DNA of 64,000 nucleotides from Myxococcales bacterium. Lineage in GTDB: Bacteria > Desulfobacterota > Binatia > HRBIN30. The position numbers and the translations under genes are program-made. The notes below the pieces were generated by a model. It was not told where the DNA came from. It worked only from the letters and a program-made list of their open reading frames with translations, and did not search any database. The stretch lies in assembly GCA_037445065.1 (NCBI GenBank), contig JBBILD010000015.1:1-64000 (forward strand). Reading direction: 5' to 3'. Below are positions 1 through 60,397 of this stretch, in pieces (the first letter of the stretch is position 1; each line of letters starts with the position of its first letter).

Positions 1-1
1 G

Positions 2-250
2 CCAACGAACACTCCCACACCGACCGCAACTCCGACGAACACGCCGACACCGACACCTACCAACACGCCGACCGAAACCCCCACGGTGACACCAACCTCG
101 ACGCCGACTCGTACTGTATCGCCAACCCGTACGCCGCCGCCGATTCCAGTGATCCCGTCGCCGTCGAGTTCGAGCGGCCTGGCGATGGTCTTTGCCCTTG
201 GCGCCGGGATTCTTTGGATGTTGGCGCGCCGAGCCCGATCTGTACGTTGA
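2..250 (+). CDS. 3' end of a Pro/Thr-rich surface protein with C-terminal motif-TM-basic tail (partial; not in ORF track)
   Basis: Frame from nt 2 reads PTNTPTPTATPTNTPT...RTPPPIPVIPSPSSSSGLAMVFALGAGILWMLARRARSVR, TGA at 248-250; tail matches that of the next gene. Confidence 0.85.
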   Translation, partial: PTNTPTPTATPTNTPTPTPTNTPTETPTVTPTSTPTRTVSPTRTPPPIPVIPSPSSSSGLAMVFALGAGILWMLARRARSVR

Positions 251-302
251 CTCGAACAGCAAAACTCTGCATGAGGGTGGAGAGGAGAGAGGGGTCGAGC
301 GG

Positions 303-1304
303 ATGACGGTGCAGAGTTGGATGGCGCGGATCGTAGAGAGGCGAAAGTGGTGGTGGACTGCGTCGGGAGAGCGATGCAGCGTAGCGGCCCTCTTGTTGCT
401 CGCGACCTGCTCGCTGGTTCAGGCGCAAACGCCGCGGGTTGTGAGCCTGGTTCCGTCCTTTAGCGCGATCAACGTCAGCGGATCGGTGACTTTGGACTTG
501 CGAATTGACGACCCATCCTCAATCACGGGCTATACCTTCGGTATCACATACCCAGCCGCGCTACTCGGCGTCACGAGCGTGACCACTGGAACCGGGTGCT
601 TCAGCGTGCCGAACTTCTCGGTCGACGGCTCGATTTGTTTGACGTTGGCTTGCACCACGCCGCTTACCGGAAGCAACATCACGTTGTTTCAGATTACATT
701 CGTTGGCGAGGCGAACGGACTGGCTCCGGTGTCCTTTGCGGGTACAAGCTGCGGAGGTCCGTCAACGCCGGCTTGCTCACTCGAGGCCGGAGCCGCCTCG
801 GTTCCGTGTACGACCAGTGGAGCGAGCATCCAGGTGGGACCCACTCCCACACCGACGCAGTCCCCAACGCTCACACCCAGCCCCTCGGTAACGCCGACGA
901 ACACAACCAGTCCCAGTCCCACGTTTACGCCTACGGGGACTCCGACAGGCTCGCCCACCAACACCGTTCCAGCGACGAACACCCCCACCGTGTCCCCCTC
1001 GCCGAGCGCGACCCCGTCACCAACGGCGACGGCCTCACCGACCTCCTCGCCCACGTCGAGCCCGACGCGTAGTGCAACGCTGTCGCCGACCGCGTCCTTC
1101 ACAGCGACGCCGAGCCCCACTTCTACCTTGACGCCAACTCTGACGGTGACGCGAACGCCCACAGTCACCAGAACTCCCACGGACACTCCCGTGCGCACAC
1201 CACCGCCAATTCCTGTGATTCCAAGTCCTGCCAGCGGCGCGGGTCTCGCGCTGGCAAGCGGGCTGGTCGCGGCCATGCTGTGGTTGTTGCGGCGCACTCG
1301 CTGA
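303..1304 (+). CDS. Secreted cohesin-like domain protein with Pro/Thr/Ser-rich linker and C-terminal TM anchor
   Basis: Purine-rich RBS before ATG 303; hydrophobic signal ending VQA|Q; cohesin-like pattern (GSVTLDLRI...GYTFGITYP...LFQITF); ~120 aa PT linker; RTPPPIPVIPSP-TM-RRTR tail. Confidence 0.8.
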   Translation: MTVQSWMARIVERRKWWWTASGERCSVAALLLLATCSLVQAQTPRVVSLVPSFSAINVSGSVTLDLRIDDPSSITGYTFGITYPAALLGVTSVTTGTGCFSVPNFSVDGSICLTLACTTPLTGSNITLFQITFVGEANGLAPVSFAGTSCGGPSTPACSLEAGAASVPCTTSGASIQVGPTPTPTQSPTLTPSPSVTPTNTTSPSPTFTPTGTPTGSPTNTVPATNTPTVSPSPSATPSPTATASPTSSPTSSPTRSATLSPTASFTATPSPTSTLTPTLTVTRTPTVTRTPTDTPVRTPPPIPVIPSPASGAGLALASGLVAAMLWLLRRTR

Positions 1305-1366
1305 ACAAACCGAGCGGACTGGCTCTGGGCTGAGTCGGGGCGGGTTGGGCCTTAGGCTACTGGCAT

Positions 1367-2530
1367 CTACAGTCCGACGGAGGAAAAGGCGGCAGGCAAC
1401 GCGCCGATCAGTTCGCGTGGCGTGGTTGCCTCCACCAACAAGGTACAAAAAGGCGCGTACGCACCAATCACGCTGTCTCCCGTGTTCCACCTTTGCTGCG
1501 GCTCGGGGTTGATCCACACCACTGCGTGGCACTGCCCTGCAATCCGCGCAAATGTTTCGCGTTCGGGCGGGCGCCAGTTGTTGCGAGCATCGCCGAGTAT
1601 AAACAGCACTGTGTTGGCGGAAAACCGGAAGGGGTGGCCGGACAAGCTGCGTAGGAGCTTGCCGTAGTCGGAGCGTGCCCCCAAATCGAGTTTTCCGCTT
1701 GGGTACACGGTGCCGTTCGTGAAGTCGATCTCCACCGGAGTATCTACAAACCCGTAGAACTCGGAACGGCGAAACAGCGGGCGCAGGGCGTAAACGAAGG
1801 TGAGAAAAAAATGGCTTGCTGTTGCCACTGAGTGCGAAAGGTCGCAAAGCACGACAAGATCGGCGTGCCTCGGCCTGCGCTTCTGCCAAGCGATCCGGCA
1901 CATGATACCGCCTTGCGCTAGCGACCAGCGGAAGGTCCGGCGGTAGTCCACTCGTCCGCGGTGCGCTGCTGCATACCGGCACCGTAGCCGGCGGGCAAAC
2001 GCACGCGCGAGCCATTCGAGTTCCGACTGCAGCTCGCGCACGTCCTGGACGTCAATGGTCGGGAACGGCCGGTCCAGTACGGTGCGGATCGAGTGCTGCT
2101 TCAGGCCGGGTGATTGTCCTTGTGGGGCTTCTCCCTCGTTGCTCGGGCCCGACTCCTCGGCTTCCCGGCACTGATCGCTCCCACGTAGGTGGTGGATGGA
2201 GGGCAAAGCGCGGTCTTCAGCTTTGCTGCGGCCGAGCAAACTGTTGCCCGGTTGGGGCCCACCTCTGCCACTGGAGTCGCGGGGCGAATCGTGGCGCCGG
2301 CGTTTCCTAAGCTCCTTGGGAGCGGCCGGAAAATAAAGTTCGAACAAGCGCTCGAAAACCGGCAAATCGCCTTTCCGTTTGACAAGTGAAGTGGCCAGCG
2401 CGGCGCGCAAGACGTGCCGTTCGATGCCAAGCAGCGAAATGGCACGAGCTGCGTCGAGCGTTTCTGCTGGACTCGCTTGGATGCCGTGTGCCCGCAGCTC
2501 CTGGAAAAATCGGAACAACCGGCGCTTCAT
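1367..2530 (-). CDS. VWA domain protein, CoxE-like
   Basis: N-term LRAHGI..S..ETLDA; MIDAS-like CDLSHSV; ILGDARNNW; WINPEP..RWNTGDS. Confidence 0.9.
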   Translation of the reverse strand: MKRRLFRFFQELRAHGIQASPAETLDAARAISLLGIERHVLRAALATSLVKRKGDLPVFERLFELYFPAAPKELRKRRRHDSPRDSSGRGGPQPGNSLLGRSKAEDRALPSIHHLRGSDQCREAEESGPSNEGEAPQGQSPGLKQHSIRTVLDRPFPTIDVQDVRELQSELEWLARAFARRLRCRYAAAHRGRVDYRRTFRWSLAQGGIMCRIAWQKRRPRHADLVVLCDLSHSVATASHFFLTFVYALRPLFRRSEFYGFVDTPVEIDFTNGTVYPSGKLDLGARSDYGKLLRSLSGHPFRFSANTVLFILGDARNNWRPPERETFARIAGQCHAVVWINPEPQQRWNTGDSVIGAYAPFCTLLVEATTPRELIGALPAAFSSVGL

Positions 2531-3453: not shown

Positions 3454-4443
3454 TTAGGCGTGGGCGACGAGCGCAGGAGGCCCCTCAACGCCATCGGCCT
3501 TGTTCGGCCGCCCCTTTTCTAAGATCCGGCGCAAGTGCTGCACGCTGATCGACTTCACGATGCCGGCCTTGACCAACGCTGCGCGCAGCGTCCGCAAGGA
3601 CCATTGCTCCCGCTCCAAACCGAACTGGCGAGGCGAGGTTTCGGCGACTTGCAAGATCGCTTTCCGTACTTCCGTCGTAAACACGCTGGGGCCGTGTCCT
3701 CGCCGCTGCGTTTGTAAGCCCAGCACCCCATGCTGGCGAAACCGCCGTACCCAGCGGCGCACAGCGAGGCGGCCAACGCCGAATCCGGCCGCGACCTCCG
3801 CTTCGGAGAGCCCACTGGCGCGAGCAAGAACGATCCGCGCCCGCTTGGCGGCCTCAGGCTTGCCCTCTTGCGCGAGCTGTTCCAAGCCGGCCCGCGCCTG
3901 CGGTGTGAGCGTCAAGCTCGCTGCCTGGCTGCGTTGCCAGAGCTCTGGCGGCAGCGGCACACCCTGGAGCAGTTGCCGTAGCCCCTCGACACTGATTTGC
4001 CCGACGATTCCGCGGCGCAGCACGTGCGCTTGCAGCCGGCGCAAAGACCAGTGCTCGAATGCCTCTCCCACGTCGCGCGGTGAGTGCACCGCGATCCGTA
4101 CGATCGCATCACGCACTGCTGCATCGAGGCGCCGCTTGCGGGCCTTTCCCGCAGAGGCGTGCGCCAGCCCTGCCAGGCGCCGTCGCTCGAAGCGCCGCAC
4201 CCAGCGACGCACGGTTGCGCGGTCGGCCCCGAGCTGTCGCGCAATTTGCGAAAACGGCCGTCCTTCTGCACGCAGAAGGATCATGCGCGCTCGACGCGAG
4301 TGCGACCCGCTACCTTCAGCCGCAATCCACTCCAGTTCGGCCCGTTCCTCGGCAGTCAAAGCGAAGCGGCTCCCGCGATTGGCCTTCGCCCGGCCTTGCG
4401 CTGGTTCTGCTTCCCGTACCAAACGGTTCCCTGGCTTGGTCAT
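3454..4443 (-). CDS. Protein with two tandem IS630-type HTH DNA-binding modules, no DDE domain
   Basis: Two ~130 aa repeats LT...R..L...RAR..L..A.G......A...G.....VRRWVRRF...GL...SPR..G....WSLR.L...G...IS...LR..L; start at 4443 or up to 4506. Confidence 0.8.
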   Translation of the reverse strand: MTKPGNRLVREAEPAQGRAKANRGSRFALTAEERAELEWIAAEGSGSHSRRARMILLRAEGRPFSQIARQLGADRATVRRWVRRFERRRLAGLAHASAGKARKRRLDAAVRDAIVRIAVHSPRDVGEAFEHWSLRRLQAHVLRRGIVGQISVEGLRQLLQGVPLPPELWQRSQAASLTLTPQARAGLEQLAQEGKPEAAKRARIVLARASGLSEAEVAAGFGVGRLAVRRWVRRFRQHGVLGLQTQRRGHGPSVFTTEVRKAILQVAETSPRQFGLEREQWSLRTLRAALVKAGIVKSISVQHLRRILEKGRPNKADGVEGPPALVAHA

Positions 4444-5071
4444 GGCCGCCGCATACGCTCTAAGTGCCGAGAGCATATACACTTTTTTGGCCACCAGCGC
4501 AAGCAAAACAAAGTTTTTCTCTTACGCCTCGTCCCAGAAGAACAGCGCGAACGAAATCGAGTCCCCCTTGGCTAAGGACACCTCGGGTGCCGCGATCACT
4601 CGGGGGGGCTGGGGCGGTTTTTCCGGCATGCTGGCTCTTTTACGAGGTTTCGTATCGCTCCGTACGATTGTCTGCATGGTCCCTTGTCTCCTCTACGCCT
4701 AACGGATGCAAGGCTGCTGCCAGCGCAGGCTGGCTTGTGAGATCCGACGGGAATTTACCGCCGGGGCGGGCAAAGGGTCGCCAAGAATACGTTTTTTCGG
4801 AATGATGTACGGATTTTTGGACATTCGCTCGAACCCCGGGAGTGACAGAGTCACGCGCCTGGCGGTCCGCGGCGTGCGAGGCGGAGCGCGACTGGCCTTC
4901 AGCAGGAACTGCTGGCGAGGAAAGGCACGAGCTTGGTGACACCATTGGGAGGGTTGGTGTTTGCAACCTCTTTCTGGTCGCGCAACGCCGTCACTTTCCT
5001 GCTCACCCGCTCTTACAGCGACAACCCGGAGCTGAAGGGACAAAGCCGTCGAGGCAGAGACTGTTTTGGAC

Positions 5072-23646: not shown

Positions 23647-24291
23647 ATGCGTCGGGTCGGGCTAGCGGGTGGGCTAGTTGGCATGAGTTTGGTGGGCGGT
23701 TGCGGTTGGTTTGCTTCCCGCACGGGAATCGAAGCGCGTCTTGGCGCACGGGAAGAGGGGATCGCCTCGTGGTACGGGCCAGGGTTCCATGGCCGCTTGA
23801 CGGCCGCCGGCGAGGTGTTCGACCAATTCGAACTCACCGCCGCGCACCCCTCGCTGCCGCTTGGCACGCGTGTGCTGGTCACCAACTTGCAAAACGGGCG
23901 CTCCGTGGAAGTTCGCATCAACGACCGCGGTCCATTCGCACGCGACCGCGTGATTGACCTTTCCTACGCTGCCGCCCGCGCCCTCGGCATGATCGGCCCG
24001 GGTACAGTGCCTGTCCGCCTCGAAGTGGTGGGTTGGAGCGCGGCGCGCAGCTCTGGGGGGCGCTACGTGCTGCAACTCGGCACCTTTCGTGACCGGCGTG
24101 AAGCCGAGCGCCTCGTGCGAGAACTCTCTCACCTCTCTGCCCGCGGCTACGTCGTTCCCATGCGCGTCGGCAATACGACGTATTACCGCGTGCGCGTGGC
24201 CGTGGCTGGCAACCACGCCACCGCCCGCCGCCAGGCCCAAGCCTTGGCCCGGAAGGGAGTTGCGCCGGTGGTTCTGGTGGAGCGGGAATGA
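23647..24291 (+). CDS. rlpA: Septal ring lytic transglycosylase RlpA-family lipoprotein with SPOR domain
   Basis: Lipobox [49 protein letters not shown]-like YVLQLGTF...YYRVRV. Confidence 0.92.
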
Positions 24292-24929
24292 CCGTACGCG
24301 AGGCACGCTCCAACGTTTCTCGAGCGGTCCTCTTGGAAGCCGCCATCCTCCTGGCGGTGACCCTGAGCGTTGCCCTCTCCCTGCGCTTCTCTGCTGCCTG
24401 GCTCCTGGTTCCCTTGGCCTGGCTCGTCTGGTGTCGCCGCAATTTAGAGGAGTTCGGCCTCAAAACGAGCGGGTTCGGTTCGGTGCGCTTCCACCTGTTT
24501 CAATTTACCGGAGTTTTCGCTCCCTACCTCCTTGGGCACTTCGCGTATGGCCGCCTTTGGCAAGGGAGGGTGTTTACCCTCGCGTTCCCGGCAGAGTTCC
24601 TGGCGCAAATTCCGGAACAAATCCTGGGCATCGGTCTCGCTGAGGAGTTTTTCTTCCGCGCCTACTTGCAGACGCAGCTCGATCGCTTCTTCGGTCATCG
24701 TTGGTCGCTGCTAGGCGCTCGCCTGGGCTACGGCTGGCTGGCGAGCGCCACAATCTTTGCGCTCTGCCACATTTTTTACGGCGGGCCGGCCCGGTTGGTC
24801 ACCTTTTTCCCAGCCTTGTGGTACGGGTGGTTATGGGCTCGCACCGGAAATGTGTTCGTCCCCGCTTTCTACCACGGCACCAGTAACCTTCTTATGATGA
24901 TCATGTTGACGAGCTTCCGTCCGACGTGA
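24288..24929 (+). CDS. CPBP glutamic-type intramembrane protease, myxosortase-like
   Basis: Multi-[40 protein letters not shown]. Confidence 0.85.
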
Positions 24930-47973: not shown

Positions 47974-48224
47974 CGTACTTGTCTCCCGTGACTTGAGCTG
48001 GCGCCGCTGCAACCTCGGGATTCGATCGCGCCTAGGCGCAACCCCATGCGATGGCGGAGCGGAAACTACTTGTCAACCGGCGTGACAGTGTGATGGATTG
48101 GGCTTTCAGTTTGACTTTCCCTGCGCTTCGCCCTACGAGGGCGGCTGCACATTGTGGGCGCGTTCGGATTCCAAGGTTGACTAACGTAAGCGGAAGGGGA
48201 AAGAAGGCCCGGGACGGGAAGACA

Positions 48225-49358
48225 ATGAGAGCTCGCAACTTACTCGTGAAAATCGTGCTCGTGGGGTTGGTATGGGTTGCTGTGCAAGCAGGGGCGCAGA
48301 CGACGAGCGATCTGGCCTGTTCGGGAGGGCCGCGGGACGGCCAATCCTGTCAGGGTGACGACGATTGTTTTGTTTCCTGCCCGACTTCGTTTGGTGCCTG
48401 CGTGGTTGTCCAAGGCGTGTGTGACGGCGGAGACTTCGACGGGTTTCCCTGCGATTGCCCCGGGGGGCGTTGCGTGGGAACAGGTGCGAGCGGTACCTGT
48501 CAGGGAGGAGCATTCGCGGGAGACTCTTGCCGCACGGCGGACGGCGAAGGGAACTGTGGAACGGGTAGCTCGTGCGTCGGCACGCAAAGGGTGTGCGTGG
48601 CCGGGAATTTCCGCGGTTTTGGTTGCTTGCGCAACACCCATTGCGAGGGCGCGAGCTGCGCCTCGACCGGGCGTTTTTGTGACGGCGGCGATTTTTCCGA
48701 CTTTTCGTGTGCCGTTTCCGCAGATTGCAACTTGCCCACGCCGCAGACCACCCCAGGAGTGTGCCGTACGCCGGATTTCGGCTGCGCCGCGGTGACTCCC
48801 ACGTTTACGCCGAGCCCGCGTTTTACCGCAACGTATACGCCAGTCACGCCGACGCTGCCGCGTTCACCGACCGCATCGGCGACGCCGAGAGCAGACACGC
48901 CCACCGCAACGGCGCGGGTTGGTACGCCCACGAGCATACCCCCGAGAAGTCCCGCTACCAGAACTCCGACCGCGGGCGCTGGCACGCCCACGCCCACCAT
49001 TCCCAACAGCACCGTCCTGATAGCGCCCGCTTCCCGTGGCTCAGAGGTGCTGATGGTGGATCGTCCCGAGAGCGTGCCGCTGACCGGTACCATCACCCGC
49101 ATTGGCAATCAGCGGGTGTGTACGCAGTTCATTCGGCGGGCCGGTTCGAACGAGATAGCGATCAATCCCGCGGTGAGCGAGGATGTACCGGCCGGGACGG
49201 TAGTGGTGTTCGGACCCTGCGGGGTGCGCCGAGAGTTCGTGCAAGAAAGCTGTGCTGTGGCTCCTGGGACGGGTAAGCCGTGGGGTTGGCTTGGTGGGGT
49301 AGGCGTGGTGTGGTTTGTGCGGCGCCTGCGGCGGACGAGGCGGAAACCGACCGTTTAG
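48225..49358 (+). CDS. Secreted Cys-rich repeat protein with PT linker and Cys-TM-basic tail
   Basis: Signal ending AGA|Q; about five CxGGxxxGxxC modules; PT linker; ends ESCAVAPGTGKPWGWLGGVGVVWFVRRLRRTRRK. Confidence 0.85.
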   Translation: MRARNLLVKIVLVGLVWVAVQAGAQTTSDLACSGGPRDGQSCQGDDDCFVSCPTSFGACVVVQGVCDGGDFDGFPCDCPGGRCVGTGASGTCQGGAFAGDSCRTADGEGNCGTGSSCVGTQRVCVAGNFRGFGCLRNTHCEGASCASTGRFCDGGDFSDFSCAVSADCNLPTPQTTPGVCRTPDFGCAAVTPTFTPSPRFTATYTPVTPTLPRSPTASATPRADTPTATARVGTPTSIPPRSPATRTPTAGAGTPTPTIPNSTVLIAPASRGSEVLMVDRPESVPLTGTITRIGNQRVCTQFIRRAGSNEIAINPAVSEDVPAGTVVVFGPCGVRREFVQESCAVAPGTGKPWGWLGGVGVVWFVRRLRRTRRKPTV

Positions 49359-57628: not shown

Positions 57629-60397
57629 ATGCCACGGACGCTAATCGCTCGGGGTCATTGTACAGTCAGAAAGCCCGTGGAACGCTCTTGGCTTGTGGTG
57701 GTGGGGGCAATGATTCTTTGGCTCGTCGCCGCCCCCGGTCCGGTGGAGGCGTTCAACTGTGGCGGGCGGCAATTTCAGTTCATCACGGTTTCGCCGTCCT
57801 CGGACATTGTGTCGGCTCAGGCAACATACACGGTGAGCGGGCAAGTGCCTTCGCTGGACGGGTGCGACATTGGAACCGGTACGAACTTCAGCATTGTTTT
57901 TCCCGGTACCACGGATACAGCCACGGTCACGAGTGGCACGGTCAACGGAGTTCCGATCGCGGTTTGGGGCACGCGCTCCGGTCCAAACCTGACGTTCCGT
58001 AGTCCCGTGGTGATCCCGAACAACGCGACTTTCACCATTGTCTTGAACGTTGTCACGAACGACTCGACCCCAGGCAGCAAAACCCTAACGATGTCGGCGA
58101 GCCCGGTGCAAAATGGCAGCATCGGTGCGACCACATCCAGCCCGTATACTCTGTCCGTTCCGACTCCCACGTTTACCCCGACATCTACTCACACACCGAC
58201 CGTGACCAACACGCCCACGGAAACACCAACTCTCACTCGGACTCCGACTCATTCAGTCACACCAACGGTTACGCACACGCCCACCCGCACCCCCACTCCG
58301 ACGCAGACCCCGACGCCGGGGTTCTGCACCTTGCCTTTGGCGGAAAACAACTGCGTACCCGGAGGGGGCCCGCGGGCTACGGACTGTTTTCTCGAGTGGC
58401 TCCCAACTCCCGTGCCGAAGCGCGCCCGGAACGGCCTGCCCACGCGAAAGCTCGTTTGTTACGAGGGCGACCGGCGTTGCGACGCAGACTCGGATCTCGA
58501 CAACGGCTCCTGCCAGGTGCGGATGCGGCTTTGCATCAACAATGCGGACCCGCGGCTTTCGACGTGTGTGCCGAGCGACGTGGACACAGCGGAAGTACGC
58601 GGCCCCAACCCGGCTCGCCTACGTGATCAAGCGGACACGAACAACCTGAACACTCTCGAGTTTCACCTAGGGATGGGAGGTCTGGGCCTCAATGTTTGGC
58701 GGCCCAATGCCCAAGTGTTCGTGGGCGCGGCGAACTCGGAAGCGAACGCCTGCACCGGCCTCATGACGATGGAAGTACCGTTGCACCGCCGCAGTGGAGG
58801 AGGCTTGTCGGCGGGGCGCAAACGGTTTCGGCTCAAGGTGACAGCGTCGAGTGGAAAGGTGGATCGGGACTCGTTCACCGTCGAATGTCGCCCGAGCACC
58901 TGCGGCGATGGGCGGGTGCAAGGGGACCACGAATCCTGCGACGATGGCAACCGCATCAACGGCGACGGCTGCGATCAAGGCTGCCAGATTGAAGTGCCTG
59001 CCTCTCCAACCCCGACCCATACGGCAACGGAGAGTCCCACGCCTTCACCTTCACCCGAACCGACGAACACCGCGACCGCCTCTCCCACTGCAGCGGGGCC
59101 TACGGCTACCGCGACCGATACTCCCACAGTGACTCCCACACCAACGATTACCAATACTCCCGGCCCGCAGGTGTGCGGCAACGGCGTGGTGGAGGGCGAC
59201 GAGGAGTGCGACGACGGCGGCATTTGCGTGGGTGGGGACAACGCCGGAACCGCCTGCACCGGTGAGGATCAGTGCATCGGCAACGGAGTGTGTATTTCCG
59301 GCACTCGCATCGGCGTGGCATGTGCATCGGATGCAGATTGCCCGGGTAGCGAGTGCGTACACTGCCGCACCTTCGGGGGCGATGGCTGCGCTGCGAACTG
59401 CACCTTCGAGCGTCAAGTGCAGGCGCCGCTAGGCGTGGGCACCGGAGCACGCTTGTTCAACGAAACGTTCGCTGTCAACCCACTCAACCTGAACATCACC
59501 GGCCGCCAAACCATCACCTACGGCAAGGAGCGCAACGGCCAGATTCCCATCGTGATCCGCGCCGAGGATAGCCAGCTCGATCAAATTTCGGTTTCGGTGC
59601 TCGCTTGCGCGTGCGTGCGCACAGTGGAGGCCAAGACTTGCGGTGGCACGCTGTTCGAAGCGGATGGAGTCACGCTGGCGGTGAACTGTTCGTTGGAAGA
59701 TAACTGCGCTGCGCTGGGTAAGCCGCCGTGTGCACCCCTGCACGGTCCTGGTAACGCCGCCTCGGGAATGATCTTCTGCGACGGCCTCGCCGACGGTGCC
59801 AACATGTTCTGGCAGCAGGATGCAGGCGGAACGCCCCCACCGCCCCCGCCGACCCCGCCTCCCGGCTCTGGTCCGCCGGAGATCACCTTCTTCGATCCAG
59901 GGCCGGCCGGCTCTGCGATCCTCCTCACCACGGTGCGCATTGGGAACGTGAGCGGTGCGTGTCCGATTGTGCCAGTGACGCCGCCGCCTTCGCCTACACC
60001 GAACGTGTATGGTCCGGACGGCTTGTTCTGCACCGACGACGATCCGGAGTCCTCGCGCGGCAATCCCAACACGATTCCGCTCCTCACCGGCAACGTGGCG
60101 GTGCAGATCAACAACCATTACCATTCGGTCCGCCGGAGGCCGGAGTTCATCCCTGCCACGCCTCCGGCCACCACTGCGGGTATCCCGTTCGACTGTGCAG
60201 CGCTGCTCTCCGAAAACCCGACGGTATTCGGGTCTGGGATTGCCGGCGGGTTCACGGCGTTGAACCAGCCGGTGTTGGGCGACTTGGTGGTGGTGAACCA
60301 GTTCCTGTACGTGGTTACGCCGACGCCGAGCAACACCCCGCTGCCGACGTTTACCCGTACACCCACTCGTACCCCCACGCGCACCCCCAGAAGATAA
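57629..60397 (+). CDS. Large secreted modular protein with Myxococcus-type Cys-rich repeats and PT linkers
   Basis: Signal ending VEA|F; CGDG....ESCDDGN..NGDGC...C and CGNG.VE..EECDDG repeats; CxGG modules; three PT-rich tracts. Confidence 0.88.
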   Translation: MPRTLIARGHCTVRKPVERSWLVVVGAMILWLVAAPGPVEAFNCGGRQFQFITVSPSSDIVSAQATYTVSGQVPSLDGCDIGTGTNFSIVFPGTTDTATVTSGTVNGVPIAVWGTRSGPNLTFRSPVVIPNNATFTIVLNVVTNDSTPGSKTLTMSASPVQNGSIGATTSSPYTLSVPTPTFTPTSTHTPTVTNTPTETPTLTRTPTHSVTPTVTHTPTRTPTPTQTPTPGFCTLPLAENNCVPGGGPRATDCFLEWLPTPVPKRARNGLPTRKLVCYEGDRRCDADSDLDNGSCQVRMRLCINNADPRLSTCVPSDVDTAEVRGPNPARLRDQADTNNLNTLEFHLGMGGLGLNVWRPNAQVFVGAANSEANACTGLMTMEVPLHRRSGGGLSAGRKRFRLKVTASSGKVDRDSFTVECRPSTCGDGRVQGDHESCDDGNRINGDGCDQGCQIEVPASPTPTHTATESPTPSPSPEPTNTATASPTAAGPTATATDTPTVTPTPTITNTPGPQVCGNGVVEGDEECDDGGICVGGDNAGTACTGEDQCIGNGVCISGTRIGVACASDADCPGSECVHCRTFGGDGCAANCTFERQVQAPLGVGTGARLFNETFAVNPLNLNITGRQTITYGKERNGQIPIVIRAEDSQLDQISVSVLACACVRTVEAKTCGGTLFEADGVTLAVNCSLEDNCAALGKPPCAPLHGPGNAASGMIFCDGLADGANMFWQQDAGGTPPPPPPTPPPGSGPPEITFFDPGPAGSAILLTTVRIGNVSGACPIVPVTPPPSPTPNVYGPDGLFCTDDDPESSRGNPNTIPLLTGNVAVQINNHYHSVRRRPEFIPATPPATTAGIPFDCAALLSENPTVFGSGIAGGFTALNQPVLGDLVVVNQFLYVVTPTPSNTPLPTFTRTPTRTPTRTPRR

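Follow-up and report, generated by a model that had tools for sequence, protein, structure and literature searches.

The window, that is, the whole stretch of 64,000 nucleotides analysed here, opens contig C15, which belongs to a 3.79 Mb genome of 97.7% completeness. Two genes at its beginning end in the same kind of tail (Table 1). Because the contig start cuts gene 1, this gene is visible only as a Thr/Pro linker followed by the tail. No contig end overlapping the start of C15 or the end of contig C29 was found in a search for the 5' part of gene 1; the ends of C45, C10 and C28 carry similar Thr/Pro repeats, which allow no assignment to gene 1. Public contigs offered no usable extension beyond the window start, and the one that spans positions 48-1500 without any difference may be the assembly's own source. 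Five passenger families found in relatives (nine queries) had no tblastn match in the genome at E ≤ 1e-5. Another Thr/Pro-linker secreted protein, Cys-rich and repetitive, is encoded at window 57677-60397 (forward strand), and its paralogue on the small contig C46 is 89% identical over 387 aa.

Table 1. Features of the two tailed genes at the window start, and exosortase and short-tail loci elsewhere in the same genome (C numbers are contigs).
Feature	Position	Strand	Basis or remark
Gene 1, 3' fragment: Thr/Pro/Asn linker and sorting tail	2..250	+	5' part lost at contig start
Core signature of tail 1, IPVIPSP-SSSS-G	143..178	+	Sequence, tail alignment
Tail 1 predicted membrane helix (179-226), Arg cluster, stop	179..250	+	Hydrophobicity
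Gene 2, 333 aa if the start is ATG 303 (inferred)	303..1304	+	Signal peptide, cohesin-fold domain, linker, tail
Likely Sec signal peptide of gene 2, ends VQA	303..425	+	Judged by eye
Cohesin-fold domain of gene 2	426..842	+	Structure model, Foldseek
Thr/Pro/Ser-rich stalk of gene 2	843..1193	+	Sequence
Core signature of tail 2, IPVIPSP-ASGA-G	1209..1244	+	Sequence, tail alignment
Tail 2 predicted membrane helix (1245-1289), RRTR, stop of gene 2	1245..1304	+	Sequence
C29-type exosortase, own copy	C29:25223-25765
Own-genome short IPTL-type tails	C12:37179-37256, C20:17429-18022, C29:3-707, C38:2-1318, C9:133860-134756

Gene 2 has ordinary GC3 (0.72, against a median of 0.73), and no promoter-like site was seen in window 1-1500. 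Its passenger domain (139 residues) is predicted to adopt the cohesin β-sandwich fold. The model has a pLDDT of 97.1 and its best Foldseek match (E 6e-9) is to cohesins; the leading matches include type I and non-cellulosomal cohesins at TM 0.74-0.79. The Pfam cohesin model PF00963 gave 14.8 against a cut-off of 24.1, and residues 22-160, used as a query, found no homologue at E ≤ 1e-3 among 339 candidates.

The motif copies at 128-163 and 1194-1229 both translate to RTPPPIPVIPSP, identical at all 12 residues, while 9 of the 12 codons differ, by 11 nt in total and every change silent. The first-pass annotation had read this pattern as selection on the peptide. Translation bears out the identity and, since none of 200,000 simulated sets of 11 random nucleotide changes spared the peptide, selection on the motif is well supported. 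Downstream of both copies come SxxxG, then 15-16 hydrophobic residues that include LWxL, and finally an Arg cluster next to the stop codon, so that the layout recognised earlier (motif, transmembrane helix, basic cluster) is indeed complete at both C termini.

Within this genome the two tails stand alone: the pattern IP[VIA][IV]P[STA]P fits nothing else in 66,012 six-frame ORFs, and a tail HMM scored them at 64 and 54 bits, with the next match at 10.8. Alignment of 45 tails gave the consensus xTRPPIPVVPSPTSPAGLxMIxGLGxxxxWxLRR. The conserved core is [IV]P[VL][VI]x[ST]PxxxxG, then helix, then Arg. Its Gly is invariant in 77 of 77 tails; its two prolines are fixed by the pattern used for selection, which two further HMM matches failed. 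Of the 12 identical residues, RTPP falls on the side of the linker and can be done without, the Thr/Pro linker being absent from 19 of 136 carriers.

No curated CTERM model reaches its cut-off on these tails. The IPTL-CTERM model (TIGR04174) gave 10.7 bits for the tail of gene 2 against a cut-off of 20.5 and did not match that of gene 1; it matched two of the 45 aligned tails (best E 0.21), and in 51 genomes no long-tail position was among those where it scored above cut-off. PF18203, also an IPTL model, supplied the only Pfam match, a weak one (one of 45, E 0.0036). The IPTL-CTERM spacing, [IV]P-x-x-S-x-x-G, is exceeded by exactly four residues in 138 of 154 proteins, and these tails are called long below. 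VPXXXP-CTERM (TIGR04143) matched more of the tails than any other model (10 of 45, best E 5.4e-5), and its best score in 51 genomes was 20.4 against a cut-off of 30. MYXO-CTERM (TIGR03901) gave tail 1 between 12.6 and 14.2 bits against 20, and all 66 long tails checked lack a motif Cys. The tail alignment contains neither PEP nor LPXTG, and no PEP-CTERM domain model matched any of the 45 tails. PIP-CTERM (TIGR04173, cut-off 30) and PVV-CTERM (NF051874, cut-off 27) did not match the window tails at E ≤ 10; the latter matched three of the 45 (best E 0.6). The first-pass annotation held that the motif belongs to no recognised class, and the comparison with existing CTERM models agrees, since none gave a passing score. 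The long tail is an uncatalogued signal: no curated model names it.

The tail caps many unrelated exported proteins. A search of 1.84 billion representatives gave 114 clusters at E ≤ 1e-3, and the tail HMM matched 163 of 164 fetched proteins, in 162 cases within 15 aa of the C terminus. For the 136 carriers with an N-terminal part of at least 100 aa, these parts fell into 21 groups not linked by BLAST (sizes 50, 27, 14, 14, 11 and smaller); signal peptides of carriers were judged by eye. Passengers with named domains include ice-binding, SdrD_B, DUF11, TSP_C and HYDIN-Ig proteins, and representatives of the five largest groups had no Pfam match. The commonest passenger domain (locus L002:520-1290; 50 of 136 carriers) has a confident all-β model, made from a relative (pLDDT 93), for which Foldseek found no match at E ≤ 1e-3 among solved structures; the best Z, 6.8, was to Ig-like adhesin domains and is not significant. 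By these sequence comparisons the tail is a mobile C-terminal module.

This modularity bears on the suggestion that the shared tail is a remnant, left in adjacent paralogues by duplication or gene conversion, and takes no part in sorting. Most copies do form a tandem pair in one locus, often of paralogues, and a genome holds only one to four. However, the silent sites of the window's two copies have diverged while the peptide was preserved, tails also occur on unlinked genes on other contigs, and the tail is better conserved than the domains it caps, which come from unrelated families. Confinement to full-length paralogues, named at the outset as an outcome that would count against a sorting signal, fails because 21 unlinked domain groups carry the tail. 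The remnant reading is, on this comparison of sequences, largely refuted and seems very improbable.

The tail is restricted to one order. Its profile found 105 copies in 46 of the order's 52 genomes, between one and four in each. In a sample of the class, with 29 candidates scored per genome and a profile trained on this order, tails were found in 36 of 38 genomes of the order and in none of 213 genomes of other orders. A sample of 301 genomes from the phylum yielded matches in two genomes of the order and to one weak frame; the latter (G305), the lone phylum-level match outside the order, was rejected as chance, being a 78-aa frame of 21.9 bits without an Arg cluster. The tail is thus supported as order-specific and lineage-restricted within the sampled class. 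Nearly all carriers are named 'hypothetical protein' at source, and one carries the NCBI label Margulisiibacteriota.

A candidate enzyme follows the tail through the order. The window's genome has two exosortase-family genes, on contigs C29 and C20. The C29 enzyme carries the family signature (TIGR04178, 46.4 bits against 23), and its residues C91, R132 and H148 are invariant in 17 of 17 enzymes of its type. Of the order's 52 genomes, 49 carry this type, each in a single copy. It forms its own clade, which broadly follows the families; its profile scored order orthologues at 127 bits or more and reached at most 93 in 16 matching genomes outside. The exosortase H model (XrtH, TIGR04177, cut-off 86) was the best model for four of five C29-type enzymes scanned, at 69-84 bits, and gave 80.6 for the window genome's C29 enzyme and 81.2 for its C20 enzyme. 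Exosortase H has an associated membrane protein (NF041730) alongside IPTL-CTERM, and the gene after the C29-type enzyme is similar to it (25.4 and 30.3 against 35).

Of the 52 genomes, 44 have both tail and C29-type enzyme, two the tail alone, five the enzyme alone and one neither; as related genomes are not independent, this co-occurrence within one order amounts to roughly a single evolutionary event. The tail-only genomes are G031 (97% complete) and G554 (83%). Among the positions listed, 13 of 37 genomes (11 of family f1 and two of f3) have the C29-type gene no more than 20 kb from a tail, many of the unlinked cases being on short contigs. Linkage was seen only in these two families, not in f2 or f4; in f4 the distance is 149 kb in one genome (G039) and 1.24 Mb in another (G027). 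The end of C29 has the order enzyme, partner, metalloprotease and 5'-truncated surface protein, and the window has tails, VWA, AAA and HTH protein. These are the left and right flanks of a single locus in four relatives (G008, G018, G020 and G006), and from gene order C29 is taken to join C15; no overlap in sequence was found.

The protein encoded at window 3454-4506 (reverse strand) is IS630-like by two model matches, a best stretch of which spans only positions 1-107 of the model's 299. With such short coverage it resembles a tandem of HTH modules that lacks a catalytic domain. Syntenic counterparts at 55-60% identity are present in five of 20 fetched loci, from three genera, and the protein is possibly a domesticated regulator.

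Might another exosortase clade, for example the C20 type, or any of them, read the tail instead? Each of 51 genomes has two to five exosortase-family genes, the C20 copy is as near to XrtH as the C29 copy, and G031, in which no C29-type enzyme was found, has two tails and a true exosortase H. The positions argue otherwise: no tail is present within 20 kb of any of the 73 other exosortase copies, and in 19 regions centred on other exosortases there was no long-tailed gene, with an IPTL-type gene in one. Reading by another clade is accordingly improbable. Other clades (such as G000 C20:26531-27013 and loci L198-L216) sit in housekeeping neighbourhoods, usually with their own downstream membrane gene, and the true exosortase H of G031 (C60:2563-3287; 92.6 against 86) directly follows an IPTL-CTERM protein.

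Processing by a protease of another kind is hard to credit. The genome has two CPBP protease genes, one of them 23 kb from the tails (window 24288-24929, forward strand, overlapping rlpA). This one, however, is myxosortase-like (Mrt_core 94.4 against 100), and the genome supplies it with Cys-type MYXO-CTERM substrates, a kind to which the long tails, with no motif Cys, do not conform. For a rhomboid protease, the best rhombosortase score (TIGR03902) in the genome was 22.8 against 84. There is also no PF04203 (sortase) match in this 97.7% complete genome. The co-occurrence profile proposed by the first-pass annotation, covering exosortase, rhombosortase and CPBP proteases, hence singles out an exosortase-H-like enzyme, and cutting by a CPBP or rhomboid protease would be most surprising. 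Window 48051-49358 (forward strand) encodes a Cys-rich protein whose tail is of the MYXO-CTERM type (23.2 against 20); judged by sequence, it and the myxosortase-like CPBP protease are a second, separate sorting system of this genome.

IPTL-CTERM is reportedly paired with exosortase H (TIGR04177), a pairing ascribed to Haft et al. 2012, and the long tail resembles an IPTL-type tail with four residues added. Global hhalign comparison with 24 Binatia IPTL-type tails needed a gap of exactly four residues (E 0.0013), pairing IPxx with [AIV]Pxx and SxxGL with SxxGL; this profile match, to which the helix contributes a large part, is weak, with an HH probability of 7% in the global and 49% in the local alignment. 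On an HMM of the Binatia IPTL-type tails the 45 long tails had a median of 11.9 bits, which rose to 19.1 when the four residues were omitted, against 2.4 bits for a control of 227 proteins with a C-terminal helix. Most tails of both kinds (63 of 66 long, 12 of 18 short) have a distance of 16-17 from Gly to the first Arg or Lys, and the gap between the two kinds is bridged by short forms like APAASPAGL. The window's own genome also has short IPTL-type tails (Table 1), one of which passes TIGR04174 at 35 bits, in a gene region split by rough gene calling.

Both kinds of tail cap the same kind of protein. Homologues of the gene 2 cohesin occur at the same locus across the order, and 28 were aligned. 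By eye, except for three that pass TIGR04174 (in G002, G489 and G506), six end in a long tail, ten in an IPTL-type tail and five, all of one genus (g9), in a dockerin-like sequence; the ends of the other seven are internal, truncated, untailed or unclear. The nearest homologue of the window cohesin (50% identity, in G007) has an IPTL-type tail, and the IPTL-tailed cohesin of G506 is 62% identical to the long-tailed one of G035. A single clade of the six long-tailed domains was rejected (p-AU 0.00012; quick tree, group labelled beforehand). As the ends are mixed and the long-tailed proteins form no single clade, long and IPTL-type tails have been interchanged on more than one occasion in this type of protein. 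Such repeated exchange is as expected if both tails do the same job, and forms our strongest argument, drawn from sequence relationships. In genus g9 (L031:10175-12613, L042, L045, L131 and L132) the cohesin counterpart is about 800 aa long and 45-49% identical, and the dockerin-like end stands in place of a membrane tail.

An uncleaved membrane anchor would be a simpler reading of the same tail. The Pro-rich motif would then be structural or serve binding, whether by capping the helix rigidly, by ending a glycosylated stalk or by touching the exosortase-associated membrane protein, and IPTL-type proteins of the locus would be the only substrates of the nearby exosortase. In keeping with this, the motif continues the Thr/Pro stalk, the tail fails every curated CTERM cut-off, IPTL-type substrates in the same locus could account for the linkage, and the cohesin slot tolerates different anchoring modes, since genus g9 has a dockerin-like end there. 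However, the linkage of enzyme and tail persists in five genomes without an IPTL match above cut-off (G008, G018, G020, G024 and G026), and stalkless proteins too have acquired the motif together with the helix and Arg cluster. To our knowledge plain anchors rarely hold a fixed spacing from motif to helix in unrelated proteins. We regard an uncleaved anchor as unlikely.

The reading that we favour, and hold to be probable, is that the tail is an order-specific IPTL-type signal, longer by four residues, which is likely to be cut by the single-copy exosortase-H-like protease of the C29 type and to leave its passenger anchored at the surface. Read from sequence, it appears to be a real, unnamed variant of the IPTL/exosortase H kind, for which cleavage is predicted. 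It would work like a signal of that kind, yet by curated tests it is not a member. Of the lineage-specific sorting class first proposed, a lineage-specific, modular tail of sorting type survives, with no occurrence in 213 genomes of other orders and no curated model. Its independence as a new class was not borne out, given the IPTL-like build with four added residues, the exchange with IPTL-type tails and the exosortase-H-like enzyme that tracks it.

By analogy with the ArtA/PGF-CTERM and PEP-CTERM systems, a carrier would be exported via Sec and retained in the inner membrane by its helix and Arg cluster. The exosortase would cut near the motif, remove the helix and attach a lipid or other anchor, and the Thr/Pro stalk would project the domain outward. 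The predicted cohesin of gene 2 would serve, through putative binding, as a tether for secreted proteins with dockerins that the same locus encodes. Neighbours of the tandem pair are a divergent NHL-repeat protein (with a weak dockerin match), a metalloprotease or a cohesin-like gene.

A wider proposal can be offered only tentatively, and we rather doubt it: tail and C29-type enzyme may be a dedicated, vertically inherited pair that installs the major envelope proteins (an S-layer-like or stalked coat) of the whole order, with the outward-facing domain swapped for unrelated folds between lineages and one small exosortase reading two motif lengths. Position, long Thr/Pro stalks and a tail that hardly varies are constant features of the tandem pair, and the tail is retained where the passenger family changes between lineages. 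By analogy, a major-coat role for the tandem pair is plausible.

Our literature search, which had most subscription journals outside its reach, found no published description of the long tail and no paper treating exosortase and IPTL together; what it covered on IPTL-CTERM or exosortase H is sparse. IPTL, XrtH, VPXXXP, Binat, PIP-CTERM and XrtX do not occur in the main text of the 2023 myxosortase preprint. An uncatalogued sorting signal now gains a named candidate enzyme, and about 100 'hypothetical' proteins of an uncultured, widespread lineage become likely surface proteins. The natural swaps of long and short tails on near-orthologous cohesins suit tests of a little-studied system. If one small exosortase does read two motif lengths, they would be a natural swap series for mapping signal recognition and cutting.

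The class of mechanism is already known, and several systems can be set beside the one described here. VPXXXP-CTERM with archaeosortase B is an archaeal system with few substrates and the enzyme nearby. It shares with the long tail a Pro just before xGL and differs in spacing (VPxxxP, against VPxxxxP in the long tail); the archaeosortase B model (TIGR04144) gave the C29 enzyme 46.2 against a cut-off of 150. For PGF-CTERM and archaeosortase A, Haloferax is the experimental model of cleavage and lipid anchoring (PMC7157517), and for PEP-CTERM the exosortase has a Cys/Arg/His triad (bioRxiv 10.1101/2023.06.07.544157). Both share with the present system a tripartite tail after a Thr-rich region and a Cys/Arg/His membrane protease. 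In contrast, the long tail has neither a PGF nor a PEP motif, and their enzymes have eight helices and at least 20 substrates per genome, whereas here an enzyme of about 180 aa has few. Compared by tail type, not by passenger homology, the IPTL-tailed S-layer protein mela_00855 of Methylomirabilis lanthanidiphila (PMC8671808) is an exported diderm protein of about 300 aa and shows that such tails can cap a major envelope protein, although its own tail is a classical IPTL-CTERM. Its C-terminal peptides were missed by mass spectrometry, for which the authors also blame poor detectability.

IPTL-CTERM itself shares with the long tail the layout of motif, helix and Arg cluster, the [IV]P start, the SxxG[LV] end and the same spacing from Gly to Arg, and the two interchange on homologous cohesins. 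The long tail differs in its four extra residues (consensus PSPT) and second conserved Pro, in being far less variable than the local IPTL tails, and in its confinement to one order, at 1-4 copies per genome and mostly in one locus. A likeness on the enzyme side is probable: in this order of Binatia an XrtH-like gene, below the XrtH cut-off, is followed by an XrtH-associated-like one.
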